Shown: positions 9,127 to 55,930, numbered from the stretch's first letter. The stretch is 64,000 nt of DNA from Candidatus Nomurabacteria bacterium (GCA_023898465.1 CP060223.1:160001-224000); one strand, 5' to 3'. Made by a program: numbers and translations. Notes: generated from the letters alone by a model not told the origin.

Positions 9127-12100
9127 ATGAAATTCTTTTTGAGACTTACAGGTCGGATGCGAGAAAAAAGGGGACTAGGTCCGACTGTGCTTGTGAGTGT
9201 CTTTATTGTTGCCGCACTGGTACTTTTCTTTCCTGAGAGTCGCGCCTATGCCGCAAGCACGGGAGATAAGGTAGCACTCTTCTTTATTGAGAATTTCATG
9301 TACCCGGTGGTGCAGTTTTTGGCGAACGTATTGATTGTGGTAATAAATATCCTCGTCGCCGTTGCGCAGTACAATGGATTTATCAATGCTCCGGCAGTAG
9401 AAAAAGGTTGGGTGATTGTACGCGATCTCTCCAACATGTTTTTCATTGTCTTTTTGCTTATTATTGCGTTTGGTACCATATTTAAAATCGAAGCGTATCG
9501 TTACAATCGCATTCTTGGTAAGCTAGTTATTTTTGCTTTCTTGATTAACTTTTCAAAGTTTGTTGCTGGATTTTGGATAGACATCGGACAGGTGATCATG
9601 TTGACCTTTGTGAACGGGTTTAAGGACGCAGCAGCTGGTAATTTAGCCTCCGGTCTGGGATTAGACAAAACGCTAGAACTTTCAAACAGTCCACTTCAGA
9701 ACATTGACATCACGAGCAAAGCGCTTTATGGCGCTATTATTCTTGCCTTAATCCTCCTAGGGATTGCCGTTGTAGTGACGCTCATTATTACGGTGTTGTT
9801 GCTTTATCGTATTGTGATGTTATGGATATTGATTGTTTTTTCGCCTTTGGCTTTCCTTACCCGTATTTTTCCAAATACGACCAAATACTCTGATCAGTGG
9901 TGGGGTGAGTTTAATAAGAACATCATTGTTGGACCGGTGCTCGCCTTTTTTCTCTGGCTTTCATTAACTGTTATTGCAACAAGCAATGGAAATCTTGCCA
10001 CAGACTTTCAGTCAGTAAGTACGCAAGAGACTACCGGATTATTAGGCACGGCAAATGAGGCTGGTGAAGGCACTGGTCAGACGATTTCCGCCGCCATCAC
10101 TACGATAGGTGAGTCTGATCGTCTACTTTCCTACATGATTACCATTGGTCTCTTGTTAGGCTCTTTGCAAGCTGCACAACAACTCGGTGCTGCTGGGGGT
10201 CGCTGGGCCGGTTCAATGTCAGAGAAACTGAAGACCGGTGGTTTAAGTGCGGCCGGTGTTCTGAGCGGAGTAGCTGCGGCTCGACTTGCCTTACGAGGAG
10301 GAAAGGCTGGTGCAGAGCGTGTCGGGAGTACCGCATGGCGAACTGCGGTTACGAAATCAAAGGTAGGCAATCGACAGATACTGGCACCTTTAACCAGGAA
10401 ATACTGGGAAGGGTATGCACAGCGTGGGGCTGAGCAGCAGCAAGTCCTTGATCGTCGCATGATGGCCCGTGGGCGCACCATGGCTGATATTGTCCGTGAA
10501 ACCAAGCTCTATGGTGGTGGCGGTGACTTAGCCGTGGGCACCTACATTGAAGACACTGAACGCGCCTTGATTAACGAGGGCTATAATGAAAAACAAAAAA
10601 GTTTAGGAAAAAATCCTAGCTCGGAAAAGGTTGTTCAAGAAATGTGGAGCGCCAAAGCACAAAAAGGTGAACAAGGTATTACTTCAAAAAACAGTGGAGC
10701 GCTTCTGGGTGCTAGAAATGGAAATTGGGACGATCTTAACCAAATGATGTTTTTTAATAAGGAGCTTAAATCAAACATTGAAAAATACGGGCCTGACCCT
10801 GATCAAATCCCTGCAGACGTAAAAAGTAAGCTACTTGAAGAATGGGGCTTTAGTACTGATAGTGCCATTGATGAATGGGAAGATGTGGTGAATGAAAGTT
10901 CGAAACACATGCGTGTCATTATGATGAATTATCTAGGCCTGTCACGTAAGTATGATCCAGAATATCTAGCGGCTCAGGAAGCACAAAAGAGAGGGAAGAA
11001 CATCCATATCATGCGTCGTGAAGGCGAGGCTGGTGACGCAGGTGCTGCAAAAGAATATAAAGAAATTATGCAAAAATCCCAGCAACAAGCTATGAACGAA
11101 GCTAAAAACGCTGGAATTGATGATCGCAATCGACTCATAGCCTTACAGTGGGCCGGTGATGAAGCACTTAGTGTGGGTCAGCACGTTGAACAGCGACATG
11201 GACTCTTTAATGAAGAAGAGGGGTATAGCTATATTGGCACCCTAGAAAAAATGGCAGATGATTCTTACGGTCTGCTGAACAAAACAGAATCATCCAAAGT
11301 TATGGAGCGCATGTCGCCTCATGCCATTACTCCGCGCTATTTTGATACGGAAACAGGTGAGATAGACTATAATACTGACGCATCTGAATGGAGCGAGATT
11401 GGGAAACGGATGTTTAAATTCTTTGGTAAGTTTACCAACCGTGAAATTGGACGAATGTCGGGCCGTGTCGGTGAACAAATTATTGGACTTGATGGTGTTG
11501 TAGGAAAGAAAAATGTAATCTTTGATGCAAAAGGTCAATTTTACGAAGGCGAAGGAACAGATGAAGAAAAGAAAGCGCGTCGAGCTGAATCACAACGTCG
11601 GTGGGAGGCTATGTATAGTCAAGACTCACTTTCCGCGAAGAAATTATATATGAAGGTGTTTACCGGAAGTGCTGACGGATTTAAGGATTGGGATAAAGGT
11701 GGACAAACAATAAAAGGATGGACTCCTCCAGCACCGACAGAGGCGGAAAAAGCAGCTGTAAAAAAAGCTGAGGCTGAGGAAAATACAGAGACGGCTAATA
11801 AGGCAACAGGTGAAGAAAAAACATCTACGTCCGATACCGCGCAAAAAGATGAAACTAAATCGCCCGGAGGAGTGGTTTTGACTCCAGGTGCTCAGTTTAA
11901 GGCAGAACAAGAGGGGGAGGTAAAAACATCAGATAGAAGTAGTCAAACTCCTTCAGTAGAGCCTAGTGCTGATGAAAAAGCGCCTTATAATCGAGAACAT
12001 ATGCAAGCCTCTGATAGTTATGGCAGATTGGCGAATTCTTTGACCGCCTATCATGATGAATTGCCAAAATCGGCTGATGAGTTACGTACAACTATTAGCG

Positions 12101-12345
12101 AGCTTGGTCGTAACGTAACAGATGCGGTTGATCGTTTGAATAATATTCAGAGCAATGTAAAAGCTCCAGACTTAAAAAATGAAATAGGCGGTCTGGTAGA
12201 TAAATTGAAGACCCATCAGGAAAACGGAGAATCAATTCGCTTTAATCGAACCCCGGCTGATGAGCAGCGAGAATTCTTTAAGCGCAGTACAGAATTACTT
12301 GGTGAGGTGGGTAAGGTAATAAAAAAGTCAGTTAAAGAAAAGTAG
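9127..12345 (+). CDS. Polytopic membrane protein with a long hydrophilic coiled/charged C-terminal domain. It is VirB6/TrbL-like by architecture and context.
   Basis: It has a signal-like N-terminus plus at least six hydrophobic helices in the first ~300 aa, followed by ~750 aa of hydrophilic K/E-rich sequence. It lies upstream of the VirB3-like and VirB4 genes in the same operon. The VirB6 assignment is inference from topology. No diagnostic motif was verified. Confidence 0.45.
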   Translation: MKFFLRLTGRMREKRGLGPTVLVSVFIVAALVLFFPESRAYAASTGDKVALFFIENFMYPVVQFLANVLIVVINILVAVAQYNGFINAPAVEKGWVIVRDLSNMFFIVFLLIIAFGTIFKIEAYRYNRILGKLVIFAFLINFSKFVAGFWIDIGQVIMLTFVNGFKDAAAGNLASGLGLDKTLELSNSPLQNIDITSKALYGAIILALILLGIAVVVTLIITVLLLYRIVMLWILIVFSPLAFLTRIFPNTTKYSDQWWGEFNKNIIVGPVLAFFLWLSLTVIATSNGNLATDFQSVSTQETTGLLGTANEAGEGTGQTISAAITTIGESDRLLSYMITIGLLLGSLQAAQQLGAAGGRWAGSMSEKLKTGGLSAAGVLSGVAAARLALRGGKAGAERVGSTAWRTAVTKSKVGNRQILAPLTRKYWEGYAQRGAEQQQVLDRRMMARGRTMADIVRETKLYGGGGDLAVGTYIEDTERALINEGYNEKQKSLGKNPSSEKVVQEMWSAKAQKGEQGITSKNSGALLGARNGNWDDLNQMMFFNKELKSNIEKYGPDPDQIPADVKSKLLEEWGFSTDSAIDEWEDVVNESSKHMRVIMMNYLGLSRKYDPEYLAAQEAQKRGKNIHIMRREGEAGDAGAAKEYKEIMQKSQQQAMNEAKNAGIDDRNRLIALQWAGDEALSVGQHVEQRHGLFNEEEGYSYIGTLEKMADDSYGLLNKTESSKVMERMSPHAITPRYFDTETGEIDYNTDASEWSEIGKRMFKFFGKFTNREIGRMSGRVGEQIIGLDGVVGKKNVIFDAKGQFYEGEGTDEEKKARRAESQRRWEAMYSQDSLSAKKLYMKVFTGSADGFKDWDKGGQTIKGWTPPAPTEAEKAAVKKAEAEENTETANKATGEEKTSTSDTAQKDETKSPGGVVLTPGAQFKAEQEGEVKTSDRSSQTPSVEPSADEKAPYNREHMQASDSYGRLANSLTAYHDELPKSADELRTTISELGRNVTDAVDRLNNIQSNVKAPDLKNEIGGLVDKLKTHQENGESIRFNRTPADEQREFFKRSTELLGEVGKVIKKSVKEK

Positions 12346-12351
12346 TTTTTT

Positions 12352-13755
12352 ATGGTTACCTTTGAAGATTTTTACGAATATCACGACGTAGAGCGTCTAT
12401 CAGTCGAGGAAGTACAAAAGGCTGAGGTGTTAGCGGCTATTCGTGACGCATTAACACATGCCTGGTATCAAACCCAGCCTGGTAAGGCTCATTCGGTCCT
12501 TAGTTTTATCGACCAAAAATTTTCTACAATACCAAAGAGTACACTTCCTGAAGAGATAAAAACGCTCCTTTTTCAAATACAATGTATTGTCGAATTTTCT
12601 TCTCTCCCTTCCACCAGTCCGGAAGAAGTTCAAGAATACATGCAAAAGAAATCTCGGGTACCTCTTTTCATTGAAGAGCTTGAATTACAGGACATCATGC
12701 CGAGACTCATCCAGGTGCATTTAGGCTTCCCTGATTTGTTCTTACGTTGGTTTGGATCGGCAGTACAAGGCTTGCGAGCAGGTGAGCAAGAGATCGGCAA
12801 TTCTCGCATCCAATTGTTTAATGGTAAGGTGAGTAGTCCAACAATAGGCTCGTGGACGCAGGACTATGAACGATTTGCCGAAAATCATCCGGCTGATGGT
12901 GACGTAGTTATTGCTGAGTACATGACCAAGAGTCCGAATATTCGTTCCTTGGAAGATTCGGATAAAGCAGCCATTCGTAAGCTCTTTACTTGGTTTAACC
13001 TTTTATCAATCGATCAAAGTCCAATTTTGAGGGTGTCAGAGGCCAGTCGCCCGCGAGTAAGTCCTTCTAGTGTGTCAAAAATACCAGATACTCTTACACA
13101 AGAGCCAGATAATGATGTACTTGCACCAGTTGCCCCACAAAAGAGTATGGGTAAAATAAAACCTGTTCAAAGTGCAGCACAAGAGAAGCCGGAGCGAGAC
13201 GTGAGTCCACAAGAGTTATTACTCACTAATCTGCATAATTCAAGCAACCTAGTTGAGCGCTTTGAACGTTTAGAAAAAGATTTGCCCCCGGCTGGACCAA
13301 AGAGCATTATGCAACTTACTGCATTGGCGGAAAAAGCCTTAGCAGGGCAGGAGAAGTCAGGTCGTGTAATCGCTGGAATATTTCAAATAGTGCGAGCAAG
13401 GGGATTACAAGCCTTACTGAGCGACGCTTCATTTGTGAACCTTATGCGTAAGACAATGGCGCCGGAATTAGAGCAGCGTCTGCGCCTTACGCATGACCAG
13501 GCCGTGCAGGTAAGCGATTCACCGGCCAATCGCATGGTGATCTTAAAAGAGTTTTTTAAGGCTCTCTTTAATACTGCCACCGGATCTGAGGCTGATGCGG
13601 CACGCTTAATGGTGCATGTGGCAAGTATTGTGCCAGAAACAATGGCTGGTCCAGAAGCAGGTTTTGCCTATTTTGATATGAGCGACCAGCATTTCCACTG
13701 GTCTTTGACTGAAGTGCGCTCAGCCGATGGTGTGCTTCGTAACAGAATTCCGTAG
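12352..13755 (+). CDS. Hypothetical cytoplasmic protein within the T4SS-like operon.
   Basis: A 467-aa ORF with no TM segments and no motifs I recognise. Confidence 0.6.
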   Translation: MVTFEDFYEYHDVERLSVEEVQKAEVLAAIRDALTHAWYQTQPGKAHSVLSFIDQKFSTIPKSTLPEEIKTLLFQIQCIVEFSSLPSTSPEEVQEYMQKKSRVPLFIEELELQDIMPRLIQVHLGFPDLFLRWFGSAVQGLRAGEQEIGNSRIQLFNGKVSSPTIGSWTQDYERFAENHPADGDVVIAEYMTKSPNIRSLEDSDKAAIRKLFTWFNLLSIDQSPILRVSEASRPRVSPSSVSKIPDTLTQEPDNDVLAPVAPQKSMGKIKPVQSAAQEKPERDVSPQELLLTNLHNSSNLVERFERLEKDLPPAGPKSIMQLTALAEKALAGQEKSGRVIAGIFQIVRARGLQALLSDASFVNLMRKTMAPELEQRLRLTHDQAVQVSDSPANRMVILKEFFKALFNTATGSEADAARLMVHVASIVPETMAGPEAGFAYFDMSDQHFHWSLTEVRSADGVLRNRIP

Positions 13756-13772
13756 CCACAAAGCCCTCTTCC

Positions 13773-14102
13773 ATGCGGTTGACTTTTGCATTTCCGAGAA
13801 ACATGAATACATGGAGCCTTATGCGGCGTTTAGGGTATAGTCCAGATCGCCGGACAGGCTTCCCAGCCCAGCGTTCCGCAGCTCAGGAATCTAGCTATCA
13901 ACGACGATTGGGTCGATTGGTATACCCCCGATTTCATGTGTACGTAAACCAGGACAGCTCCGATCTTCTTGTGCTCAATATTCACGTAGATATGAAGAAA
14001 ACAAGCTATGAGGGTAGTCACGCTCATTCAGGTGAGTATGATGGACCTTTATTAGAAGAGGAAGCAGCTCGAATTCAGCAATATATCAGCGCAAGCCGCT
14101 AG
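13773..14102 (+). CDS. Small hypothetical protein whose start is uncertain.
   Basis: A 109-aa ORF in an otherwise intergenic 513-nt gap. It has a non-random C-terminal segment (HVYVNQDSSDLLVLNIHVD...YEGSHAHSGEYDGPLLEEEAARIQQY) and no recognised family. It could be non-coding. Confidence 0.35.
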   Translation: MRLTFAFPRNMNTWSLMRRLGYSPDRRTGFPAQRSAAQESSYQRRLGRLVYPRFHVYVNQDSSDLLVLNIHVDMKKTSYEGSHAHSGEYDGPLLEEEAARIQQYISASR

Positions 14103-14158
14103 TTTTTGAAGCTAAAGACAGCTTGAGATAAATAGGCGATGTTTTTTATTTCTATTAC

Positions 14159-14187
14159 TTGGAATTTTCATAGCATTGTGGTATATT
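14159..14187 (+). promoter_or_regulatory. Sigma70-like promoter upstream of the 14269 gene.
   Basis: TTGGAA is followed by a 17-nt spacer and TATATT (-35 at 14159-14164, -10 at 14182-14187), inside an AT-rich gap about 80 nt upstream of the ATG. Confidence 0.5.
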
Positions 14188-14268
14188 ATCCCTAGTTATT
14201 CTCATACCAAAAACCTGTTTTTACGAGGAATTTGGATCAACTAAGGGGCGAACCGCAAAAAAGAAAAG

Positions 14269-15606
14269 ATGATAGATCTCGCAACGATTAATGCCAGTAC
14301 GATTGCTCAGCCGAAAACGCTGGAAGCAGTACGTGCAGAAGTCGATGATGTTGTCTCGCTAGGTGATGTATCGCGGGCAGGGGTTTTGTTATCGTATTTA
14401 CAGCGACAACTTCCCCAATCTCCAAATGATCCAATACGTAACAATTATCAAGAAATACTTCAATCGCTTGAACGGCTTGTTGGAGAGGCAAATCCCGCGG
14501 ATGATGCGCTCATTTCAGAAGAACGTACTCGTGTAGCAGTAAGAGATTCTTCGGGCAAGGTACAGCTCTTTAGTCATGGTCGCTTCCAGAGTCCAGAAGA
14601 GCAAAAACAGCAATTGCGCGAGCGTCCTTCCACTCCTCCGAGCTTCCGGAAGAGCATTGGAAATGTACAAAATAGTACTGAATCGCGAGCCGCGCAAAAG
14701 TCAGTCCCTGTTTCCTTTGATGTTCCGGAGGATGAAGAAGAGATTCGAGAGCATACCAATCGACTTTCCGGACTGCGTTTAAATGATCAGCATAATTATG
14801 AGGCAATGGTGGAGAGTATTATCTCCCATCATCATTTAGAGTTCCCAGATGAGCAGCTAGCGAAACGTTTCAGCACTATTGCAATCTCACGTTTGAAGGG
14901 TATTCGTGATGACAAAGAGGCAAAAGAAATCTTTACTCGTTCGCCAAAGGTCGGTGGCATGGGATTGGCGCCGGAATTAGCCGATGCGGTGCTGCAGTCT
15001 TTGGAGTCAGGCGCTGAAGTGCTTGATGAAAGCTTGCCTGAGGTGCATCCTCAACAGAAAGCGCACGTTCCGACGCCTACACCTCCAGCACCTTCGCGAG
15101 TGCTGCCACATCTAGCAAATCAGCCTACCAAGGTGATGGCGCATCAGGCTATCCCTACGCCGCCTCGTACGCAAACACCAGCAGCAACATCATCTGAGTC
15201 ACGCAAAGTACTTCCTAAGCGTCAAACAGTGCAGGCGAGCGGTCGTCCAACTTTAGACGATATTAAATCTCCTTCGCGTCGACTGGTTGGTCCGGTTGAG
15301 GAGTTGCAGCACCTAAGTCTAGAGGATTTTCGTAATTGGGGATCTACTCCAGCGGATAGTGTACGAAAAGTGTATGAGAAAATTGCCGTGCTTGGACAAG
15401 AATCATTTGGCAAACGCATTGAGGGTGTACAAGCCTGGCGTCAGAGTCCGGTGCATCAACTTTACTTATCCATTAGTCGTGAGAGTTTAGAAAAGGGGAC
15501 GGATGTGAGTAAAGTGATTAGTGAGCGGACGCAGCAAAATAAAGCCTCCTTGAGTGAGGCAGAGTTTCATGCGGTAGTTGATTTAAATACTAAGCTTCGT
15601 TTCTAA
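14269..15606 (+). CDS. Hypothetical protein with a Pro-rich middle region.
   Basis: A 445-aa ORF with a Pro/Thr-rich low-complexity segment (PTPTPPAPSRVLPHLANQPTKVMAHQAIPTPPRTQTPAATSS) and no TM. Confidence 0.6.
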   Translation: MIDLATINASTIAQPKTLEAVRAEVDDVVSLGDVSRAGVLLSYLQRQLPQSPNDPIRNNYQEILQSLERLVGEANPADDALISEERTRVAVRDSSGKVQLFSHGRFQSPEEQKQQLRERPSTPPSFRKSIGNVQNSTESRAAQKSVPVSFDVPEDEEEIREHTNRLSGLRLNDQHNYEAMVESIISHHHLEFPDEQLAKRFSTIAISRLKGIRDDKEAKEIFTRSPKVGGMGLAPELADAVLQSLESGAEVLDESLPEVHPQQKAHVPTPTPPAPSRVLPHLANQPTKVMAHQAIPTPPRTQTPAATSSESRKVLPKRQTVQASGRPTLDDIKSPSRRLVGPVEELQHLSLEDFRNWGSTPADSVRKVYEKIAVLGQESFGKRIEGVQAWRQSPVHQLYLSISRESLEKGTDVSKVISERTQQNKASLSEAEFHAVVDLNTKLRF

Positions 15607-16118
15607 TGCAGTTTGTTGTACCTCAATTCATCGACGTAGAGGATAAAGTCATCGGGCCAATATCAGTGCGGCAGTTTATTCTGCTACTCGTTGGCGCTGG
15701 CATGATTTTCTTAGAGTACGAATTAATTTACCAGTTAAATAACAACATTTGGGTCTTTCTCTTTAGCGCAATTATTACTGGTTTGTTGGACATCGTTTTT
15801 GCCTTTGTGAAGGTGAACGGACGACCTTTTCATTTTTTTCTCCTCAACTTCTTAGTGACCATGCGTGATCCACGTTTACGTATCTGGAGTAAAGAAGTGA
15901 GCCTAAAGGATTTAAAGCGTGAACAGGCAAATGCAAATCCAGTTCAGACGGTAGTGGAGCCAACCAAAAAGTCGCTCACACCCTCAAAGTTGGCAATGCT
16001 TTCTTTGGTTGTTGATACTGGAGGAGCCTTTAAAGCTCCACAGAAGATTCGCGAGGGAAGTGTGAGCGTGAAGCGCGATGAGGCCCCCTCGTTAAGTGAT
16101 GATGAGTTTCGCAGTTAA
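15606..16118 (+). CDS. Small two-TM membrane protein, VirB3/PrgI-like by position.
   Basis: A 170-aa ORF with two hydrophobic helices near the N-terminus (FILLLVGAGMIFLEY...WVFLFSAIITGLLDIVFAF). It sits immediately upstream of the VirB4 genes, as in Gram-positive-type T4SS loci. Its start overlaps the previous gene's stop. Confidence 0.5.
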   Translation: MQFVVPQFIDVEDKVIGPISVRQFILLLVGAGMIFLEYELIYQLNNNIWVFLFSAIITGLLDIVFAFVKVNGRPFHFFLLNFLVTMRDPRLRIWSKEVSLKDLKREQANANPVQTVVEPTKKSLTPSKLAMLSLVVDTGGAFKAPQKIREGSVSVKRDEAPSLSDDEFRS

Positions 16119-16127
16119 TATATTGTT

Positions 16128-16829: not shown

Positions 16830-18801
16830 TATTGATTTTTCCAAAGCAGCTGGCCAGACGCCTTCACCCTCGCCTTTACCAAAGTCAGAGCGGCAACGTC
16901 AGCAAGATGAGCGACTAGAGGCCGAGCAGGAGCGCGAACTACTTGAGGCTGAGCGGGTCTATCGAGCTGGAGTAGTTACTGTTCGCGATTTAATTGCTCC
17001 GGCGGCCATGAAAGTAGAGGCAGACTTCCTGCGATTGGGAAGTCAGTATGTCCGTACTCTCTTTGTTGTTTCATACCCGCGCTATATTACTGTTGGCTGG
17101 TTTGCGCCGATTATTAATTTCAATATCCCGCTAGATATCAGCATGTTCTTCTATCCGATTGAGTCAGCGGTTATTTTGAAGCAGTTGCGAAATAAGGTGG
17201 GTGTACTTGAAGCACAAATTATTTCCGATGCTGAGAAGGGCGCCCCGCGTGATCCAGTACGAGAGACAGCGCTTCGTGATATTGAAAAATTGCGAGATGA
17301 CTTAACGCAAGGTACAGAAAAGTTTTTTCAATTTGCGCTTTACGTAACCATTTACTCTTCGCGTAAAGACCACCTTGATTTACTGACAGAAAAGATCGAA
17401 TCAATTTTAGGAGGTCGATTAATTTACTCTAAGCGTGCCTTCTTCCAGGCTGAGCAAGGTTTCCACTCGACGCTTCCCCTAGGGAGTGATCAACTGCAGG
17501 TGACCTATAACATGAGTTCATCGCCGATTGCGTCGTCTTTCCCCTTCATTTCCTCTGATCTCACCTCAGATAATGGTATTCTCTACGGCATTAATCGCCA
17601 CAACAACAGCTTGATTCTCTTTGATCGTTTCAGCTTGCAGAACGCAAACTTTGTTGTCTTCGCCACGGCTGGAGCTGGTAAGAGCTACGCCATCAAGCTA
17701 GAGATTTTGCGTAGCTTAATGTTGGGCGCCGATGTCATCGTGGTAGATCCAGAAATGGAATATCGTCACTTATCTGATGCCGTTGGAGGGACCTACATTA
17801 ATATATCCCTGAATTCGGATTCAAAGATTAACCCCTTTGACCTACCGCGCCCGTCTCGCGAAGATGAAAAACCGGCTGATATTATTCGTTCCGCCGTTAT
17901 TACCTTAAAGTCTCTCATTCGTCTGATGTTGGGCGAGTTAAATCACGAAGAAGATTCTTTGATTGACCGGGCATTATTAGAGACGTACGCGAAGAAGGAT
18001 ATTACCCCAGATTCAGATTTGCAGAATATAGACCCGCCACTTATGAAGGATTTTGAAGAGGTCTTAGGCGATATGGTGGGAACAGAAGATCTCGTGCAGC
18101 GTTTGAAAAAATACACTGAAGGTACTTTTGCCGGCCTCTTTAACAGCGCTACAAATATTGAATTAAATAATCAGCTCGTAGTGTTCTCGGTACGTGATCT
18201 CGAGGATGAATTACGACCAATCGGAATTTCCACAATTGTCTCTTATATTTGGAATATTGTACGTTCTCAACTGAAGCGTCGCATCCTCGTGATTGATGAG
18301 GCGTGGTGGCTCATGCAACATGAGGACTCAGCTAAGTTTATTTATGCTTTAGTGAAGCGATGTCGTAAATATTATCTTGGAGTAACGACTATTACGCAGG
18401 ATGTGAATGACTTCTTGCGATCACCCTATGGCCAAGCGATTGTAAACAACTCCGCTTTACAGTTACTTATGAAGCAATCGCCAGCCGGTATTGATATCGT
18501 GCAGAAGACTTTCTTGCTCACTCAAGGTGAAAAGTATCTCTTACTTGAGTGTAATGTAGGTGAGGGTATTTTCTTCGCTGGAGCAAAACACGCGGCTATT
18601 AAAGTTGTAGCGAGTTATACCGAGGACCAAATTATTACCTCTGATCCACGCCAGCTCCTAGAGATCGAACAAGCTAAGGAAGAATTCGATGAAGCTTATG
18701 CGGCCGGTCAAACTGATTTGCCGCAAGATCAATTCGGCACAGCAAAAAATGAGCCACTCGAAGCAAAGCGTTCGCTAAGTGATACGGAGGGCTTAGGTTA
18801 G
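16822..18801 (+). CDS. virB4: VirB4/TrbE/CagE-family type IV secretion ATPase (C-terminal ATPase portion).
   Basis: Walker A is VVFATAGAGKSYAIK. Walker B and the DEAW motif are RILVIDEAWWLM. The N-terminal 60 aa form a disordered Q/E-rich linker. A perfect AGGAGG Shine-Dalgarno lies 5 nt upstream of the ATG. Confidence 0.85.
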   Translation: MPDIDFSKAAGQTPSPSPLPKSERQRQQDERLEAEQERELLEAERVYRAGVVTVRDLIAPAAMKVEADFLRLGSQYVRTLFVVSYPRYITVGWFAPIINFNIPLDISMFFYPIESAVILKQLRNKVGVLEAQIISDAEKGAPRDPVRETALRDIEKLRDDLTQGTEKFFQFALYVTIYSSRKDHLDLLTEKIESILGGRLIYSKRAFFQAEQGFHSTLPLGSDQLQVTYNMSSSPIASSFPFISSDLTSDNGILYGINRHNNSLILFDRFSLQNANFVVFATAGAGKSYAIKLEILRSLMLGADVIVVDPEMEYRHLSDAVGGTYINISLNSDSKINPFDLPRPSREDEKPADIIRSAVITLKSLIRLMLGELNHEEDSLIDRALLETYAKKDITPDSDLQNIDPPLMKDFEEVLGDMVGTEDLVQRLKKYTEGTFAGLFNSATNIELNNQLVVFSVRDLEDELRPIGISTIVSYIWNIVRSQLKRRILVIDEAWWLMQHEDSAKFIYALVKRCRKYYLGVTTITQDVNDFLRSPYGQAIVNNSALQLLMKQSPAGIDIVQKTFLLTQGEKYLLLECNVGEGIFFAGAKHAAIKVVASYTEDQIITSDPRQLLEIEQAKEEFDEAYAAGQTDLPQDQFGTAKNEPLEAKRSLSDTEGLG

Positions 18802-18817
18802 CATTAACCTCAAATTT

Positions 18818-19396
18818 ATGCGTAGAATTTTTATCATCATCATCGCGCTTGTACTCTTGATTACCATTGCTGCCCTCATTCTCATCTGGATTGGTGGGGG
18901 AGACGCTTTTAATACCAACGAAAACACCAACACCACAACAAATACTAGCTTGCCGCTTGCAAATACAAATACCACAGTAAACAATAACGTGAATTCGAGT
19001 GTAGATGTTTCCCCTCAGAGCACCTTAATCGGTCAAGGGCGAAGTTTTGCCGAGCGATATGCCAGCTGGTCTCGAGCCGACTTTGATGAGTATATTAGTA
19101 GTCTCAGCGCCTGGATTACTCCTTCCTTCGCAACCGTGCTACAAACAGATAATGAAGCTCTTGATGCGGCAAAAACCGTTCAGTCGGTATCAAGTCGTGT
19201 ATTAACTAGCTCCTATAAGTCCTGGGAAGAGGATAGCTCAGCAAGTATTTCATTTGTGATGGATCGCACAGAACGACGCGACAATGAGCCAGATGCTCAC
19301 TATTATGAAACCTTGGTACTTGACTATACTTTCCTAAATGGAGAGTGGATGGTAAATGGAGCAAGTTGGCAGCCATCACGAGTCCAGCCTGAATAA
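18818..19396 (+). CDS. Membrane-anchored protein with an N/T-rich linker and a C-terminal globular domain (possible VirB8-like component).
   Basis: It has an N-terminal TM (IFIIIIALVLLITIAALILIWIG), a TNTNT-type low-complexity linker, then about 130 aa of globular sequence. The VirB8 analogy rests on size and topology only. Confidence 0.4.
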   Translation: MRRIFIIIIALVLLITIAALILIWIGGGDAFNTNENTNTTTNTSLPLANTNTTVNNNVNSSVDVSPQSTLIGQGRSFAERYASWSRADFDEYISSLSAWITPSFATVLQTDNEALDAAKTVQSVSSRVLTSSYKSWEEDSSASISFVMDRTERRDNEPDAHYYETLVLDYTFLNGEWMVNGASWQPSRVQPE

Positions 19397-19418
19397 TCAG
19401 AATCTTTGCAGTATTTTC

Positions 19419-20552
19419 ATGAGCTTTCGCTATAAAAAATTCGTTGTAGGAATGCTCACCGTTTTTCTCGGGTTTGGGGCGAGCTTTGTAGTCTCACCAG
19501 CTTCGGCACAGACAAGTTTACCCACCTGCTCATCAAGCGAGGTTTTAAATCAAATCGCTGATCACATGCAGCTCAATGTAGCGCTTCCAGGGATTACTAA
19601 CACAGTACAGTGCCTTTCGGAAACAGGTGACCAAGTAAAAACTATCCACGTTTTACAAGCAGAGTCAGGTCAGGAGCTTTCTACGTTTGTGAGAGGCTTC
19701 TATGTGTACTTTGTCTGGATTGTTGGTATTTTAGCAGTCGTGATGACTATGTACGCTGGCATTCAATGGTTAACTGCTGCTGGCAATACTTCACGGATTG
19801 AGAATGCTAAATCTACGATGAATGGTGCGCTTATCGGACTTGTATTGACGCTTACTTCATATGTTATTTTACAGGCAATTAATCCTGATTTAGTGACATT
19901 ACGAGTGCCTTTTGTTGAGCCGGTTGAAACAAGTGTTATTTCTGGGACATTTTGTCCACCAGCCCAGCAGACACAAGCTGAAAATTCAGGTCTGGTGTGC
20001 GGCGAACAACTCAAGTACTCGGATGCAAATGGTGCTGAGCACTTTTGTTTAAGTAGCGCCTGTCGAGCTGCTGATGGGGGAACTGATTGTCTGCCTTGCA
20101 CAGGGGACGGTGTTCCGTACGTGTTTTGTAAGGATCGTGGATACACCTGCGGTTACTACGACTCATTTATTTCAGTGGGGGCTACCATTACTAACTTAGT
20201 GCCAGATAAAGAACTAAAGTCGTTGAAGTTATATCGTACTAACCCAAATGCGCTTGAGGATGATAATGAATTACCATGGAAGCTTGTCAAAGAGTTTAAT
20301 GCAGATCAATTAACCGAAGGCGCGGTGCTGGAATTTACGAGCGATGATTCAGTCCCCCTTATCCAGTTTAAGTTTTCTGCGACATTCCGTGAAAGTTTTT
20401 GGAGTAATCGAGATTGTGACGCAGTAAATCCCGATGGATCAGTAAAACAACTATGGTTTGAATTACCCTATGCGCCTGGGTCAGTTGTTCACCAAGATTT
20501 TACTTTTGATATTCAAGGCATTTACAATAACAGCGAAGGCTGTATTGGTTAA
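19419..20552 (+). CDS. Secreted protein containing a conserved two-helix hydrophobic hairpin module and a Cys-rich C-terminal domain.
   Basis: A signal peptide (MSFRYKKFVVGMLTVFLGFGASFVVSPASAQ) is followed by the hairpin (RGFYVYFVWIVGILAVVMTMYAGIQWLTAAGNTSRIENAKSTMNGALIGLVLTLTSYVILQAINPDLVT) and a C-terminus with many Cys. The hairpin is about 90% identical at protein level to a segment of the 22446 gene. Confidence 0.7.
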   Translation: MSFRYKKFVVGMLTVFLGFGASFVVSPASAQTSLPTCSSSEVLNQIADHMQLNVALPGITNTVQCLSETGDQVKTIHVLQAESGQELSTFVRGFYVYFVWIVGILAVVMTMYAGIQWLTAAGNTSRIENAKSTMNGALIGLVLTLTSYVILQAINPDLVTLRVPFVEPVETSVISGTFCPPAQQTQAENSGLVCGEQLKYSDANGAEHFCLSSACRAADGGTDCLPCTGDGVPYVFCKDRGYTCGYYDSFISVGATITNLVPDKELKSLKLYRTNPNALEDDNELPWKLVKEFNADQLTEGAVLEFTSDDSVPLIQFKFSATFRESFWSNRDCDAVNPDGSVKQLWFELPYAPGSVVHQDFTFDIQGIYNNSEGCIG

Positions 20553-20563
20553 TCACTATTCAT

Positions 20564-21814
20564 ATGGAATTACCCTCACTTTCACGAAATCGAGTACTAG
20601 CTATTTTTGGCTTCTTGGTCGTACTCTTCATTCTTGGCTTCTTGCTTTTCTGGGCTTTTTTCCGCACCGATACCGCCGTAAATGGTAATACCAACACTAC
20701 CTCAAATGGTCGTTTACCAAACACCAATGATGGAGTGAATCGATCAACTACAAATACAAATAGCGTGAGTGTTTTACCGATCACTAATACACAGATAGAG
20801 GTGCCAAGCGCCACTGCCGATGGCGGGAAAACCATTGCGCAATCTTTAGTTGACACCCCTTCGGCAAATATTGCCTTAGCCGGAAATGGTGTTGATCTGA
20901 TTTATTACGAGGAGCTGAGTGGGAAATTCTATCAGCTTGATAGAAATGGCGTGGAGCGAAAAGTATTGAACGACACTACTTTTAAAGGAGTCTCGGATGT
21001 AGCCTGGTCACCAAACCGACAACGTGCCGTGCTTACTTTCAAAGACGGTGCAAATATTGTGTATGATTTTTCCAAGCAGCAGCAGATATCACTACCAACC
21101 GAGCTGCAAGAATTTTCCTTTTCACCTGATTCCGCGCAAATTGCCGCAAAGTTTATTGGTCCGACAAAGGATGATAATTGGCTGGCCGTCGTAGATGTAA
21201 ATGGGGGAAACGTGCAGGTTGTTGAGCCTTTGCGGGATAAGGAAAATCAAGTGCAGGTAAACTGGTCTCCAAACTCGCAAATTGTCGCCACCTATCAGCA
21301 GTCAATTGATAGTGAACGTCAAGAAATTGTTCCTCTAGGTATCCAAGGCGAGAATTTTAAATCCTTCGAAGTTGAGGGGAGGGGTTTTGAAGGAAAGTGG
21401 GACCAAAGTGGAAATAGGCTTCTTTATAGCGTTTACAGTTCATCATCCTCAATGAATCCAGAGTTGTATATTGTGCAGGCGAGGGGCGATGCAATTGGTG
21501 AAAGTAATACACGACTAAATCTGCAAACCTGGCCAGATAAGTGTGCCTTTACCTCGAGTGCTACTAAGGTATATTGTGCGGTTCCGCAGGGTCTAGAAAG
21601 TGGTAGTGGTCTCTATCCAGAGCTAGCAAATAGCGTGCCATATCAATTTTATGAGATTAATCTCAGCACGGGTGTACAGCAGCTGATCGCGACGCCTACT
21701 AATACAACAGGTGAAACAAGGTACTCGGTGGGTAATGTATATTTGTCAGGCGCTGAGGATCAAATCTATTTCACTGATCAGGATGGTAAGATTCGTACAA
21801 TTAAGTTGCGATGA
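20564..21814 (+). CDS. Membrane-anchored TolB-like/WD40-like beta-propeller protein.
   Basis: It has an N-terminal TM, an N/T-rich linker, then repeated AWSPNRQRAVLTF, SFSPDSAQIAAKF and NWSPNSQIVATY blade-like motifs. Confidence 0.6.
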   Translation: MELPSLSRNRVLAIFGFLVVLFILGFLLFWAFFRTDTAVNGNTNTTSNGRLPNTNDGVNRSTTNTNSVSVLPITNTQIEVPSATADGGKTIAQSLVDTPSANIALAGNGVDLIYYEELSGKFYQLDRNGVERKVLNDTTFKGVSDVAWSPNRQRAVLTFKDGANIVYDFSKQQQISLPTELQEFSFSPDSAQIAAKFIGPTKDDNWLAVVDVNGGNVQVVEPLRDKENQVQVNWSPNSQIVATYQQSIDSERQEIVPLGIQGENFKSFEVEGRGFEGKWDQSGNRLLYSVYSSSSSMNPELYIVQARGDAIGESNTRLNLQTWPDKCAFTSSATKVYCAVPQGLESGSGLYPELANSVPYQFYEINLSTGVQQLIATPTNTTGETRYSVGNVYLSGAEDQIYFTDQDGKIRTIKLR

Positions 21815-22449
21815 TGGAGAATAAGAAGCATAATTGGCTCTTACCTTTATTAGTAGCGCTTGCTGCCATAGTCCTGATTGGGTTTACCTGGTGGACTATT
21901 AGCATCCCAACTACGCCGAATCTTTCCACGCGTTTCCCAACTGTACATTTAACTGATCCGGTTCGCGGCGGACAAGATGCGCAGGTGACTATTGTTGAGT
22001 ATAGCGACTTCCAATGTGAATTTTGTCAGACTTGGCATACGGTTGCTCAGCAGATACTAGATAAATATGGCGACAAGGTAAGATTGGTATGGAAAGACTT
22101 TCCCTTAACCGATCTACACCCAGAGGCAAAAGCAGCCGCAGAAGCAGCGCGTTGTGCTCAGCAGCAATTTGCTTTTTGGGAATACCACGATCAACTTTTT
22201 GCACGTCAGAGCGAGTTAGGCACAGCGCTTTATACTGATATTGCCCAAGACCTTGGCCTAGATGCACAAGCCTTTACTCGTTGCCGAGGTTCAGGTGATG
22301 CAGACACTTTCATTACGCAGAGTCAGCAGGAAGGCGTGACCCTTGGGGTAAGTGGCACGCCAACCATCTACGTTGGTCAATACATTTTCAAAGAAGCGCC
22401 AAGTTTTTCTACGGTTGATTCACTTGTTTCTTCATTACTGTCTGAATGA
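21811..22449 (+). CDS. dsbA: DsbA/BdbD-family thiol-disulfide oxidoreductase, membrane-anchored.
   Basis: The catalytic region is VEYSDFQCEFCQTW, with CEFC as the CxxC active site. The cis-Pro loop is GVSGTPTIYV. It has an N-terminal TM. It overlaps its upstream and downstream neighbours by 4 nt each (ATGA). Confidence 0.85.
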   Translation: MMENKKHNWLLPLLVALAAIVLIGFTWWTISIPTTPNLSTRFPTVHLTDPVRGGQDAQVTIVEYSDFQCEFCQTWHTVAQQILDKYGDKVRLVWKDFPLTDLHPEAKAAAEAARCAQQQFAFWEYHDQLFARQSELGTALYTDIAQDLGLDAQAFTRCRGSGDADTFITQSQQEGVTLGVSGTPTIYVGQYIFKEAPSFSTVDSLVSSLLSE

Positions 22450-23636
22450 AGCGAAGGGATCTTTTCTTTATCTTACTCGTGGGAATTGTTGGGGGAGCTT
22501 TTTTCTCTTTGCAGACGCCGACAGCCCAGGCTTCAGAATGTTGTTGTGTAGAAATTGAAGTAGTGGGAGGAGCACCGATACAGGACTGTAAGGTGTTGGA
22601 TGAATGTGCCTTACCTTATTTACCAACAGATCTTGACCCACTCCAATGTGCAGGTGTAAACACAGATATTGAGTCAAGCACTACAAGTGATCCGATTTAT
22701 TTTACGCCTAACGCACCTATCCCAGGAGTTTTTGAAGGACCACAAGAAGTAGACGGCACACTACTGAGTCGCTACATTCGCTCTTTCTATATTTATTTTG
22801 TTTGGATTGTTGGTATCTTAGCAGTAGTGATGACAATGTACGCTGGCATCCAATGGTTAACCGCGGCCGGTAATACTTCGCAAATAGAGAATGCTAAATC
22901 CACCATGAACGGAGCCCTGGTTGGTTTAGTGTTAACGCTGACCTCGTATATTATTTTACAGGCGATTAATCCAGCACTTGTGACGCTTCAAGACCTCTCT
23001 ATCTTTTCAGTTCCAAGTCAGTTGATAGGAGAAAAAGGAGAATCAAGTGCGCGGGGTGATACCGCCGCAGGTTTACCAGAATCAATACAGGATTTAAGTG
23101 GAGTGAGTAATGTCACCAAGTGGGACGACCTGATTCGAACGATAAGTAATGAGAATAACGTCAATCCATATTATGTGAAAGCAATCATGATGATTGAGTC
23201 GCGCGGAAATGCAAACGCGATTTCACCCGTTGGCGCATGCGGATTGATGCAGGTAATGCCGGCAAATGCGAATGGCGTATGCCTGGTCGGTGAAGCACGA
23301 GCAGAGGAGAATATTCGAGCTGGTGTAAATCTCATTGCTCGACTCATTCGAAATACCTGTCCGAGCTCAGCTAGTCTAAAAAGTGGTAAAACTGTGGAGT
23401 GTAATCCACAACAGACAAATTGCTATAACGGCAGCTGGCATTATGTGATTGCGGCATATAATGGAGGAGTGGGGGCTAATTGCTCCTCACAGACTTGTGC
23501 GCCGGCTGGACCAGGCTTAAAAGGTCAGACGTGGTGGGAATGCACAGATAATGGTGGCTTTGCGGAAACTAGAAATTATGTAAAATCGGTAGAAAAGATG
23601 TATACTATTGTGCAAGGTTGGGGGGGTCTGAACTAA
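22446..23636 (+). CDS. Lytic transglycosylase (SLT domain; VirB1-like cell-wall hydrolase) fused to the two-helix hairpin module.
   Basis: The SLT catalytic motif is IMMIESRGNANAISPVGACGLMQVMPANANG (ES...SPVGA.GLMQ.MP). It has a signal peptide and a Cys-rich N-domain (ECCCVEIEVVGG...). The hairpin FYIYFVWIVGILAVVMTMYAGIQWLTAAGNTSQIENAKSTMNGALVGLVLTLTSYIILQAINPALVT matches the 19419 gene. Confidence 0.85.
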   Translation: MKRRDLFFILLVGIVGGAFFSLQTPTAQASECCCVEIEVVGGAPIQDCKVLDECALPYLPTDLDPLQCAGVNTDIESSTTSDPIYFTPNAPIPGVFEGPQEVDGTLLSRYIRSFYIYFVWIVGILAVVMTMYAGIQWLTAAGNTSQIENAKSTMNGALVGLVLTLTSYIILQAINPALVTLQDLSIFSVPSQLIGEKGESSARGDTAAGLPESIQDLSGVSNVTKWDDLIRTISNENNVNPYYVKAIMMIESRGNANAISPVGACGLMQVMPANANGVCLVGEARAEENIRAGVNLIARLIRNTCPSSASLKSGKTVECNPQQTNCYNGSWHYVIAAYNGGVGANCSSQTCAPAGPGLKGQTWWECTDNGGFAETRNYVKSVEKMYTIVQGWGGLN

Positions 23637-23646
23637 GAATTTTTGC

Positions 23647-24990
23647 ATGCGTAACAGCACCCTATTTGTTTGCTCAAAATGTGATGCGCAGTATAGTAGC
23701 TGGCAGGGCCGATGTGCCGAGTGTCAGGCTTGGGGTACTCTAGAGCCAGCCAATGCCAGCGCTAGCGATCAAATGGTTAGCGCAACAAAGCCGGCTGCAG
23801 CTACACCCTTGCATGAATTACGCGGCTCAAATGTTGAGCGATTTAGTACGGGCATAGCAGAATGTGATCGCGTATTAGGTGGCGGGATAGTTCCCGGAGC
23901 AATGTTATTACTGGCTGGCGCGCCGGGTATTGGAAAATCAACTTTAGTGTTGCAACTTGCTTCCCATATTGCGAAGGGCGGCAAAGTGCTCTATGTCTCG
24001 GGTGAGGAATCCGGGGAGCAAGTAAAATTACGTCTTGATCGGCTTGGTTTATCAGCGGAAAATATTGACTTCATCAGTAGCACCGTAATTGAGCCATGCT
24101 TGGCAGCAGCTGATAAACTGAAGCCTCGCCTCATTATTTTTGATTCAGTGCAGACACTCGCTTCGTCCAGTATTCCCTCCGAGGCTGGCACTGTTGGACA
24201 AGTGCGCACGGTTACGAACCTGGCGATGCACTATGCAAAAAATCATACCGTGGCCACTTTACTCATTGGTCACGTGACAAAAGAGGGGGTAACCGCTGGT
24301 CCAAAAACACTGGAGCACTTAGTAGATACTGTACTTTCCTTAGAAGGCGATAATAAGCATCAGTTTCGCTTATTGCGTAGCAGTAAAAATCGCTTTGGCA
24401 CAACCAATGAAGTTGGAGTATTCACGCTCGAGGAAAAAGGATTACGCGAAGTTGCTAATCCATCCGAGCGCTTCTTAGAAGAACGACAGCAGGGTAGTGG
24501 ATCAGTTGTCACAGCAACGATGGAGGGCACTCGAGCTTGGTTAGCAGAGATTCAGGCTCTAGTAAATCCCTCTGTCTTTGGCATGCCGCGACGCTCAGCA
24601 ACTGGAGTTGATGGACAACGTTTGCAGCTTATTCTAGCAGTTTTAACGAGACGAGCAGGTCTGCAATTGGGGACTCAAGATGTATTTGTGAATGTGGTTG
24701 GAGGTATTAGCGTGCGTGAGCCAGCCGCCGATCTCGCTATCGCACTCGCAGTAGCTTCTGCTTTTCGAAATGTTTCGTTTGATTCACACACGGCCATGCT
24801 GGGAGAGATAGGCTTAGGCGGTGAGGTGCGAAGTGTGGGACAAATCGAGCAGCGTGTAAGAGAGCTTGAGCGTATGGATTTTAAGAGAGTGCTGGTGAGT
24901 GCAAAGACCAAGATGAAAAAAAGTGGGATTGAAATTATCCCGGTTGCCACAGTAAAGGACGCCATTACTGCTCTTTTACCAAAAGCTTAG
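23647..24990 (+). CDS. radA: DNA repair protein RadA/Sms.
   Basis: An N-terminal C4 zinc finger (CSKCDAQYSSWQGRCAECQAWGT), Walker A GAPGIGKST, the KNRFG motif, and a Lon-like C-terminal domain. Confidence 0.9.
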   Translation: MRNSTLFVCSKCDAQYSSWQGRCAECQAWGTLEPANASASDQMVSATKPAAATPLHELRGSNVERFSTGIAECDRVLGGGIVPGAMLLLAGAPGIGKSTLVLQLASHIAKGGKVLYVSGEESGEQVKLRLDRLGLSAENIDFISSTVIEPCLAAADKLKPRLIIFDSVQTLASSSIPSEAGTVGQVRTVTNLAMHYAKNHTVATLLIGHVTKEGVTAGPKTLEHLVDTVLSLEGDNKHQFRLLRSSKNRFGTTNEVGVFTLEEKGLREVANPSERFLEERQQGSGSVVTATMEGTRAWLAEIQALVNPSVFGMPRRSATGVDGQRLQLILAVLTRRAGLQLGTQDVFVNVVGGISVREPAADLAIALAVASAFRNVSFDSHTAMLGEIGLGGEVRSVGQIEQRVRELERMDFKRVLVSAKTKMKKSGIEIIPVATVKDAITALLPKA

Positions 24991-41881: not shown

Positions 41882-41882
41882 T

Positions 41883-48681: not shown

Positions 48682-48685
48682 GTAT

Positions 48686-49459: not shown

Positions 49460-49460
49460 T

Positions 49461-51716: not shown

Positions 51717-51717
51717 T

Positions 51718-55927: not shown

Positions 55928-55930
55928 TCT

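Follow-up and report, generated by a model that had tools for sequence, protein, structure and literature searches.

A chromosomal type IV secretion locus of the ABY1 type, ending at radA, in Candidatus Nomurabacteria

Introduction

[quoted passage not shown] The survey of Quinonero-Coronel et al. (2025; PMC12102498) describes its set as TrsD, PrgI, VirB6 and PF18895 pilins without a relaxase, and VirB8 homologues occur almost only in ABY1. Relaxases are present in only ~100 Patescibacteria genomes, and no adhesins were found. The T4CP is rarely encoded near virB4; VirD4 homologues are present in many genomes, far from virB4. In ABY1, the T4SS is co-located with comF, recG and radA, for which functional coordination was suggested, and in other classes the same T4SS lies near dnaA/dnaN. 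In Southlakia epibionticum, the T4SS encoded by SEML1_0006-0019 is essential for epibiotic growth, and comEC is not essential (Wang et al., 2023; PMC10633639). The transformation of Saccharibacteria depends on ComEC with T4P (PMC12857230).

Here, we describe a T4SS locus in a stretch of 64,000 nucleotides, hereafter the window, from Candidatus Nomurabacteria bacterium (GCA_023898465.1 CP060223.1:160001-224000). The kind of system and its ABY1 linkage to radA, recG and comF are already published (PMC12102498) and are not new; the window provides a clean and complete example of an ABY1-type locus. The locus was compared by tblastn with 80 GTDB species/loci (Kerfeldbacteria, Falkowbacteria and others). 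Counts given out of 39 cover the loci whose downstream flank reached 8 kb or more, and the count of comF next to gene J covers the 57 loci in which it reached 3.5 kb or more.

Results and discussion

Overall organization of the locus

The locus is a co-directional, tightly packed gene run on the + strand, which occupies window positions 1-24990. A preliminary interpretation of the DNA, the sequence-only reading, had proposed one + strand run joining the T4SS genes, giant proteins, a DsbA, an SLT and RadA. Gene calls recover all of the named genes on this strand at the coordinates given below, and their domains are confirmed. The small overlaps it described are seen as TAATG at F/G and as ATGA at L/M and at M/N, and the biggest spacer within the run is 166 nt (14103-14268), just 5′ of gene F. 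The run ends at radA, because the next gene (an HD hydrolase) is convergent and overlaps the radA stop. Thus, the proposed 25-kb operon holds at its radA end; its start does not lie in the window, since the run begins upstream. A scan for promoters and terminators gave counts not above those of shuffled sequence; therefore, the operon boundaries are predicted from gene spacing and strand only.

The Pfam scan of every large ORF in the 64-kb window found no VirD4/T4CP, no relaxase and no T4SS VirB11, in agreement with the sequence-only reading. The same scan found no VirB9 or VirB10 domains, as expected of a monoderm. No integrase is present in the window, which samples 64 kb of a ~1.08-Mb genome. 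The GC content is uniform across the window, the flanks of the locus consist of housekeeping genes and tRNAs, and an Rfam scan of the window finds three tRNAs and nothing else. The core of the earlier proposal, a Gram-positive-type chromosomal T4SS module lacking the coupling protein, relaxase and VirB11, is therefore upheld by HMMs, synteny and the literature. Its description as 'minimal' was too modest. The locus encodes VirB1-like, VirB2-like (two), VirB3-like, split VirB4-like, VirB6-like and probably VirB8-like parts. Among them, the TrsD-like gene H, the two pilin-hairpin domains and the putatively VirB8-like gene J had been overlooked at first reading.

The predicted translocon core

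Profile HMM matches to VirB4, PrgI/VirB3 and TrbL/VirB6 (membrane domain) all lie above thresholds. The VirB6-like protein (9127..12345, +) is an extended polytopic membrane protein with ~6-7 TM helices in residues 1-290, followed by a hydrophilic Lys/Glu-rich tail of ~700 residues. The full protein scores 23.8 bits against TrbL/VirB6 (PF04610), below the gathering threshold (GA) of 25.9; the membrane domain alone (residues 1-458) scores 30.9 bits, above GA. TrbL is also matched by 11/40 VirB6-like orthologues, and conservation across the loci is limited to the membrane domain. The VirB6 profile found nothing among PDB sequences.

Three soluble or small proteins are encoded between virB6 and prgI. 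Gene D (12352..13755, +) encodes a soluble protein of 467 residues with no Pfam, NCBIfam or PDB match. It is poorly conserved, with tblastn matches in 3/80 loci. Gene E (13773..14102, +) encodes a small basic protein of 109 residues (93 if called from 13821). It matches no Pfam or NCBIfam family; 13 loci carry it at ~44% identity, and in each of them it sits between virB6 and F. Gene F (14269..15606, +) encodes a cytoplasmic all-helical protein of 445 residues, which occurs in 75/80 loci, always just 5′ of prgI-trsD-virB4. Its AF2 model has three helical modules separated by Pro-rich linkers, with pLDDT >90 at residues 10-75, 180-255 and 340-445. Despite this confident model, no PDB fold matches with E<1. 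F is a large family without annotation: it comprises 2587 clusters at 50% identity (E<=1e-3), and the ten diverse long members scanned contain no Pfam domain. D and F had been put forward as possible VirB8/VirB9/VirB10-like folds. We reject this assignment, since both are soluble cytoplasmic proteins with no TM helix or signal peptide and the F model is all-helical. A paralogy comparison of D with F shows no significant similarity.

The gene following F encodes the PrgI/VirB3-like small membrane protein (15606..16118, +), which has two TM helices and scores 35.5 bits against PF12666 (GA 27); it is found in 79/80 loci. Gene H (16128..16829, +) is TrsD-like (NF041427, E=4.5e-7; precomputed annotation PF26593, TraC-like) and corresponds to a detached N-terminal domain of VirB4. 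On the CD1110 VirB4 profile of 752 positions, H covers 11-136 and VirB4 covers 156-729, so the two proteins supply complementary parts. H is present in 80/80 loci with a median identity of 57%, and it overlaps virB4 by 8 nt. A frameshifted pseudogene is rejected as the origin of the split, because H and virB4 are separate genes in every one of the 80 loci.

VirB4 (16822..18801, +) is an ATPase of the MPF-FATA / CD1110 type. It scores 352.6 bits against the NCBIfam model NF045971 ('VirB4-like, CD1110 family'; cutoff 325), matches P-loop_TraG (E=2.6e-30) and AAA_10 in Pfam, and retains an intact Walker A (ATAGAGKS) and Walker B (ILVIDE). The best 120 listed of more than 8000 homologues are 72-87% identical and 599-682 residues long, and the named taxa among these 120 belong to the Patescibacteria group. 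By sequence, VirB4 thus appears to cluster with the MPF-FATA-related VirB4s of Patescibacteria. The locus probably derives from the conjugation machinery of monoderm MPF-FATA systems, without its relaxase or coupling protein.

Genes downstream of virB4

Gene J (18818..19396, +) lies directly 3′ of virB4, a position conserved in the core order of the related loci. The protein is bitopic: a TM helix at its N-terminus is followed by an Asn/Thr-rich linker and an α+β domain of ~120 residues. The homologue search gave two proteins, so the model is based on a two-sequence alignment and is of moderate confidence; its NTF2/VirB8-like fold scores are weak and are shared with generic NTF2-like proteins. 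A 69-member J profile matched PDB sequences through TM and low-complexity noise only. From the fold of the model and the position of the gene, J is probably VirB8-like.

Gene K (19419..20552, +; start from Logan contig L081) encodes a Cys-rich membrane protein composed of a signal peptide, an extracellular N-domain, a VirB2-like T4SS_pilin TM hairpin (PF18895, 3e-10) and a Cys-rich C-domain of 200 residues. Gene N (22446..23636, +) fuses a similar hairpin (1.3e-8) to an SLT lytic transglycosylase domain (PF01464, 3.4e-15) with the catalytic 'IES' motif, and its N-terminus is Cys-rich. The PF18895 scores of K and N are 40.4 and 35.2 bits, both above the GA of 26.6. The hairpins are 82% identical and are embedded in proteins of ~400 residues each. 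The hairpin-SLT fusion is covered by a single HSP across both domains in at least 12 loci. In the related loci, the hairpin occurs solely within large Cys-rich proteins of 275-1006 residues, and small-pilin arrays are absent. The PF01464 match and the 'IES' motif support the earlier prediction of an SLT enzyme with a VirB1-like function.

Between K and N, gene L (20564..21814, +) encodes another bitopic protein, in which an Asn/Thr linker joins the N-terminal TM helix to an ectodomain that weak Pfam matches predict to be β-propeller-like. The protein is ~40% identical over its full length in 28 loci; single-sequence searches of the PDB with L, and likewise with D, returned nothing meaningful. 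Gene M (21811..22449, +) encodes a membrane-anchored DsbA-like thiol-disulfide oxidoreductase (Thioredoxin_4, 2e-29; DSBA, 2e-17) with a CEFC motif and an N-terminal TM helix, as the sequence-only reading had recognized. The DsbA gene is present in 14/39 loci.

Giant secreted proteins upstream of virB6

The giant secreted protein of gene A (1..4469, +, cut by the window start) contains Ig-like and fn3 domains (Pfam Big_7 ×4, fn3 and Glucodextran_B). We completed the gene with contig L081, which is identical to the window over 22345 nt (0 mismatches); 874 nt of sequence are in view beyond the window edge. On this contig, A starts 102 nt before the window and its full product has 1523 residues and a signal peptide, and window positions 1-32 contain no in-frame stop codon. 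Directly upstream of A and outside the window, a Cys-rich gene of 2046 residues ends 1 nt before A. Gene B (4477..9123, +) encodes a giant secreted Cys-rich protein, whose signal peptide is followed by an fn3-like N-domain; the protein has 1548 residues from the called start and 1563 as an ORF from the GTG at 4432. Collinear orthologues of B lie directly 5′ of virB6 in 24 related loci. A single-sequence search with B found no PDB sequence match, and a paralogy comparison of A with B shows no significant similarity. Both A and B had been described as giant, Cys-rich and adhesin-like. The giant size holds for both proteins; only B is truly Cys-rich, with 81 Cys in the 1563-residue ORF versus 26 in the 1478 residues of A visible within the window.

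Conservation and the radA, recG and comF neighbourhood

The core order F-PrgI-TrsD-VirB4-J is near-universal in the 80 loci, and the synteny of the related genomes thus agrees with the assignment of the core. The K-L-DsbA-N block is present in ~23/39 loci. In the same loci, the median identity of VirB4 is 74%, compared with 47% for RadA and 47% for RecG. Such conservation of VirB4 points to strong selection and to vertical inheritance.

The last gene of the run encodes the RadA/Sms recombination helicase (23647..24990, +), with a zinc ribbon, an AAA_25/KaiC domain containing the Walker A GAPGIGKS, the KNRFG motif and a Lon_C/ChlI-like C-domain. Outside the operon, two conserved neighbours are encoded on the - strand: the RecG helicase (25626..27683; RecG_wedge, 5e-31) and a ComF-like protein (33799..34512) composed of a double zinc ribbon (DZR_2) and a phosphoribosyltransferase (Pribosyltran). 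radA lies 3′ of the T4SS genes in 43 loci, and recG lies within 10 kb of virB4 in 36/39 loci. In 9/57 loci, all inversion-bearing, comF is found immediately 3′ of J. These variants are accounted for by one inversion of the K..comF segment; therefore, they do not count as separate linkages. The placement of radA at the end of the operon is a synteny specific to the class and conserved for long, which hints at a link to DNA without proving one.

Proposed working of the locus

As a whole, the locus is very probably a Patescibacteria chromosomal T4SS in the ABY1 arrangement. Domain identities apart, we infer every step of this working. The membrane translocon would consist of the extended VirB6, PrgI/VirB3 and the VirB8-like J, and would be energised by VirB4, whose N-domain would be supplied as a separate polypeptide by the TrsD-like H. 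N, held at the membrane by its VirB2-like hairpin, may open the peptidoglycan as a lytic transglycosylase. The membrane-anchored DsbA could oxidise the cysteines in the extracellular parts of K, N and the upstream giant proteins, and these giant proteins may form contact or adhesion structures towards the host cell. Both the DsbA-substrate relation and the adhesin role are suggested by co-location and Cys content only. F would serve as a soluble helical accessory in the cytoplasm. By analogy with the Southlakia homologue, the most likely role is host interaction, in which proteins or other molecules would pass between the cell and its host, rather than conjugation.

The neighbourhood raises the alternative that the T4SS takes up or releases DNA as a monoderm analogue of Helicobacter ComB and hands this DNA to ComF, RadA and RecG, possibly with T4P. 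We consider it unlikely, although the component set (VirB2-like, B3, B4, B6 and putatively VirB8-like) equals ComB minus the outer-membrane parts. The linkage speaks for it: radA is last in the operon, all 39 loci have radA, recG or comF no more than 10 kb from virB4, and comF, recG and a full T4P cluster share the same 64-kb window. Functional coordination is also suggested in PMC12102498. However, this linkage is specific to ABY1, the T4SS lying near dnaA/dnaN elsewhere, and the variants with comF next to J reduce to a single inversion. RadA, RecG and ComF are also housekeeping or competence proteins of most bacteria. Moreover, transformation in Saccharibacteria proceeds via ComEC and T4P, and the essentiality of the T4SS does not depend on ComEC (PMC10633639; PMC12857230). 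A fuller version, to which we give a similarly low probability, holds that the ABY1 T4SS was repurposed for DNA import or export, with an operon coupling to RadA and links to ComF, RecG and T4P. It would have a DsbA-dependent disulfide-rich exterior, and the hairpin would act as an enzyme or adhesin anchor and not as a polymerising pilin.

It is far less probable, to the point of being barely credible, that the locus is a remnant or working part of an ICE with its relaxase and coupling protein beyond the window. The VirB4 family is typified by conjugative elements (CD1110/CTn2), T4CP genes are frequently distant from virB4 (PMC12102498), and the operon start lies beyond the 64 kb covered. Nevertheless, these 64 kb contain no integrase, relaxase or T4CP, and the GC is uniform among housekeeping neighbours. 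The sequence-only reading would have accepted an ordinary conjugative element on finding a relaxase and VirD4 immediately upstream; the next gene in that direction encodes another giant secreted protein instead. The locus keeps its chromosomal context in 80 species, where VirB4 exceeds RadA and RecG in conservation; this and the rarity of relaxases in Patescibacteria (PMC12102498) also stand against an ICE.

Comparison with known systems

The crenarchaeal Ced system shares a VirB4/HerA-like ATPase and works in DNA import without a relaxase. Membership in Ced is rejected, since VirB4 scores 44.6 bits to CedB (cutoff 700) and the CedA score is 15 bits (cutoff 330). Helicobacter pylori ComB resembles the locus in its VirB2/3/4/6/8-type set (VirB8 putatively so here), which is chromosomal and lacks VirD4, VirB11 and a relaxase; the locus described here is, in addition, adjoined by recombination and competence genes. 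However, ComB belongs to a diderm and includes VirB7, VirB9 and VirB10, and the shared sequence families are generic VirB only.

The locus also resembles the conjugative MPF-FATA systems of Gram-positive bacteria (pCF10 Prg/Pcf, pGO1/pIP501 Trs/Tra and Clostridioides difficile CTn2 CD1110). VirB4 passes the CD1110 cutoff, the PrgI/TrsC-TrsD-VirB4 order equals trsC-trsD-trsE, and VirB6-like, putative VirB8-like, cell-wall hydrolase and large surface proteins are encoded in the locus. The differences are the lack of a relaxase and T4CP in 64 kb, a location on neither a plasmid nor an ICE, the VirB2-like hairpin domains, which Gram-positive systems lack, and a hydrolase with SLT only and no CHAP domain.

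The closest match is the T4SS of Patescibacteria, which shares the MPF-FATA-related VirB4 with an adjacent TrsD-like gene, PrgI/VirB3, VirB6, PF18895 domains and a putative VirB8-like protein, as well as the chromosomal location without a nearby relaxase or T4CP and the ABY1-type radA/recG/comF neighbourhood. The published descriptions (PMC12102498; PMC10633639) do not mention a hairpin confined to large Cys-rich proteins, one of them SLT-fused, as seen here; neither do they mention an in-locus DsbA or the F family. A conserved giant Cys-rich secreted protein lies 5′ of virB6, whereas no adhesins are reported in PMC12102498. In summary, the window holds no new kind of system, and several accessory features go beyond the published surveys: the VirB4 N-domain as its own gene, the hairpin-anchored SLT and Cys-rich domains, the in-locus DsbA, the conserved giant Cys-rich secreted protein 5′ of virB6, and the unannotated cytoplasmic helical family F, whose members form at least 2,500 clusters at 50% identity. 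They offer testable starting points for structural and genetic studies and are not surprises.

Extent of the predicted operon

Fifteen co-directional + strand ORFs, which we call genes A to N followed by radA, run from the window start to position 24990. Neighbouring genes are separated by gaps or overlaps of at most 17 nt, the sole exception being a 166-nt gap before gene F (14269), and the TAATG and ATGA start/stop overlaps described in the sequence-only reading are real in the window sequence. radA closes the run, since the gene that follows, for an HD-domain hydrolase, is convergent and reaches across the stop codon of radA. Thus, the single + strand run ending with radA that had been proposed stands, but its beginning lies outside the window. 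The reading frame of gene A has no in-frame stop ahead of position 33 of the window, and a metagenomic (Logan) contig, L081, which shows 0 mismatches to the window over 22,345 nt, supplies the full gene; it encodes 1523 aa with a signal peptide and starts 102 nt upstream of the window. On the same contig, a gene for a 2046-aa Cys-rich protein ends 1 nt before gene A. Since gene A reaches outside the window and is preceded by this further gene, the predicted operon begins upstream of the window and spans at least 31 kb, with 16 or more genes. Its only sizeable intergenic gap (14103–14268) contains one extended −10 promoter-like match (14159–14187); such sites are no more frequent than in shuffled sequence. 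The gap may hold an internal promoter ahead of the F–PrgI–TrsD–VirB4 core.

Components of the secretion system

For comparison, the proteins of the window were all placed on 80 related loci, each from a different GTDB species; Kerfeldbacteria, Falkowbacteria and unclassified Patescibacteria make up most of them. The VirB6, VirB3 and VirB4 assignments made from the sequence are borne out by profile HMMs, with TrbL (on the membrane domain), PrgI and NF045971 all over threshold; that parts list overlooked the TrsD-like gene H. VirB4 (16822–18801, +) matches P-loop_TraG (2.6e-30) and AAA_10, keeps intact Walker A and Walker B motifs, and scores 352.6 bits, over the curated cutoff of 325, with NCBIfam NF045971, 'VirB4-like conjugal transfer ATPase, CD1110 family'. 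Gene H (16128–16829, +) overlaps virB4 by 8 nt and encodes a 233-aa protein with a TrsD/TraD family match. On the 752 positions of NF045971, H covers 11–136 and VirB4 covers 156–729; since the two proteins match different parts of one profile, the N-domain of VirB4 is predicted to be detached as the separate TrsD-like polypeptide H. A frameshift artefact is ruled out by the same two-gene arrangement in 80/80 related loci.

The VirB3-like protein (15606–16118, +) scores over the PrgI gathering threshold. For the 1072-aa VirB6-like protein (9127–12345, +), TrbL falls just under its threshold on the whole sequence (23.8 versus 25.9) and passes it on the membrane domain alone (30.9 bits); TrbL matches occur in 11 of 40 orthologues. 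The hydrophilic extension made up by the C-terminal 700 aa is not conserved, and the product is therefore a predicted 'extended VirB6'.

The suggestion that the products of D (12352) and F (14269–15606, +) could be VirB8-, VirB9- or VirB10-like does not hold: both are soluble, without a TM segment or signal peptide, and the confident predicted structure of F consists of three modules, all helical, with Pro-rich linkers between them. A fold search of this model against the PDB gave no match. No Pfam, NCBIfam or PDB entry matches the family of F, which is large: it has 2587 clusters at 50% identity (E ≤ 1e-3), of which 1827 reach E ≤ 1e-30. The F gene lies directly upstream of prgI in 75/80 loci.

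Hairpin proteins and the distal genes

The proteins K (19419–20552, +) and N (22446–23636, +) both contain the two-helix hairpin of PF18895 'T4SS_pilin' (VirB2-like), followed in N by an SLT domain with the catalytic Glu-Ser motif. At least 12 loci carry this hairpin–SLT fusion. All 56 hairpin domain matches in 32 loci of the class ABY1 lie within ORFs of 275–1006 aa with 6–54 Cys, and none is a small stand-alone pilin. Since the hairpins occur only in large Cys-rich ORFs and the SLT fusion recurs, the ABY1 'pilin' may be a membrane anchor and not a fibre subunit. The K and N hairpins are encoded by a 200-nt direct repeat (19698–19897 and 22785–22984, 81% identity) and are 82% identical as proteins, compared with about 30–55% to the hairpins of other genomes and roughly 40–50% for hairpins between genomes, which suggests intragenomic homogenisation or gene conversion between the two genes.

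Between L and N lies the gene of a membrane-anchored DsbA with a CEFC motif (21811–22449, +). L (20564–21814, +) is bitopic with a beta-propeller-like ectodomain. In both the putatively VirB8-like J (18818–19396) and L, an N-terminal TM helix is followed by an Asn/Thr-rich low-complexity linker with NTNxNT repeats, with 33% identity between the two N-termini over 64 aa; this segment may be a common stalk or a glycosylation-type spacer. RadA (23647–24990, +) has a zinc ribbon, Walker A, the KNRFG motif and a Lon-like C-domain.

Conservation of the locus

VirB4 has more than 8000 homologues; the best 120 listed are 72–87% identical and 599–682 aa long, and those that are named bear the labels Kerfeldbacteria, Parcubacteria or Patescibacteria. 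The core F–PrgI–TrsD–VirB4–J is essentially universal in the 80 loci. Of the 61 loci with enough flank, 43 have VirB6 at 6–10 kb upstream of virB4, and the giant Cys-rich secreted protein B has a collinear orthologue directly before VirB6 in 24 loci. Downstream, about 23/39 loci carry the K–L–DsbA–N block ahead of radA as in the window (DsbA in 14), others have radA directly after J, and a third group has comF after J, an arrangement explained by one inversion of the segment K..comF. Median identities across the ABY1 loci (L001–L080) are 74% for VirB4, 57% for H, 47% for RadA and 47% for RecG (25626–27683). VirB4, by a wide margin, and H are better conserved than their housekeeping neighbours RadA and RecG. 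GC content is uniform in the window, and housekeeping genes and tRNAs surround the locus. As judged from these sequences, the locus is not a mobile element but a core chromosomal system that is inherited vertically and is under strong selection.

The absence of VirD4, relaxase and VirB11 noted earlier was reproduced: among all large ORFs of the 64-kb window, Pfam detected no VirD4/T4CP, no relaxase or integrase, and no VirB11 of the T4SS type. The only T2SSE-family ATPases in the window are PilB and PilT of the type IV pilus cluster at 54.8–63.2 kb. A degenerate or partial ICE is a very unlikely origin of the locus.

The type IV pilus cluster is complete (54839–63168, probably reaching about 63.9 kb); in gene order, its products are PilM, a 437-aa protein at the place of PilN, PilO, PilB, a response regulator, PilT, PilC and a pilin bearing an N-methylation motif. 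There is a possible second pilin-like N-terminus near 63.5–63.7 kb, where antisense ORFs have 'MAWASRAFSRAPFSETSPIA' in common. Directly upstream of the pilus genes, 40850–54756 contains seven co-directional genes for secreted proteins (262–1169 aa, 6–30 Cys each). Two of these match fn3/Pur_ac_phosph_N and the others have no Pfam match; at least four carry a similar motif right behind the predicted signal peptide (AYWTEPDLP, AQWVEPDTG, AFIEPDDFP, GLEWEPQKP), which could be a sorting or pilus-associated signal.

Proposed function

The following mechanism starts from the domain identities established here, and we infer its remaining steps. VirB6, PrgI and the VirB8-like J would form a membrane translocon, energised by VirB4 together with its detached N-domain H, and F would be a cytoplasmic accessory. 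The hairpin-anchored SLT of N would open the cell wall. The giant secreted proteins are probably a contact or adhesion structure; their cysteines, like those of K and N, would be oxidised by DsbA. By analogy with Saccharibacteria, we favour a role in host interaction. ComB-type DNA uptake or DNA release is an improbable alternative, its one line of evidence being synteny: radA, recG or comF lies within 10 kb of virB4 in 39/39 loci whose downstream flank is 8 kb or longer. However, the synteny is specific to the class, and shared ancestry accounts for most of it.

Comparison with published systems

The same system was reported in a T4SS survey across Patescibacteria (Quinonero-Coronel et al. 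2025, PMC12102498), in which VirB4 forms a monophyletic clade related to MPF-FATA and TrsD homologues are very frequent beside virB4. The survey lists PrgI-type VirB3, VirB6 and PF18895 VirB2-like pilins as components, with VirB8 homologues almost only in class ABY1; relaxases are nearly absent, T4CP genes are seldom near virB4 and the location is chromosomal, in ABY1 together with comF, recG and radA. Tn-seq showed that Southlakia epibionticum cannot grow as an epibiont without its homologous cluster, whereas comEC is required for transformation and not for growth (Wang et al. 2023, PMC10633639; findings summed up in a 2025 FEMS review, PMC12857230). Therefore, the T4SS interpretation of the sequence-only reading is correct in substance, and the locus belongs to a known, published kind. 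Whereas the survey found no adhesins, the gene directly before virB6 here encodes a conserved giant protein that is Cys-rich and secreted. This conserved protein goes beyond the published surveys, as do the DsbA inside a T4SS locus, the hairpins in large ORFs with the hairpin–SLT fusion, the suggested K/N hairpin homogenisation and the large, unannotated F family.
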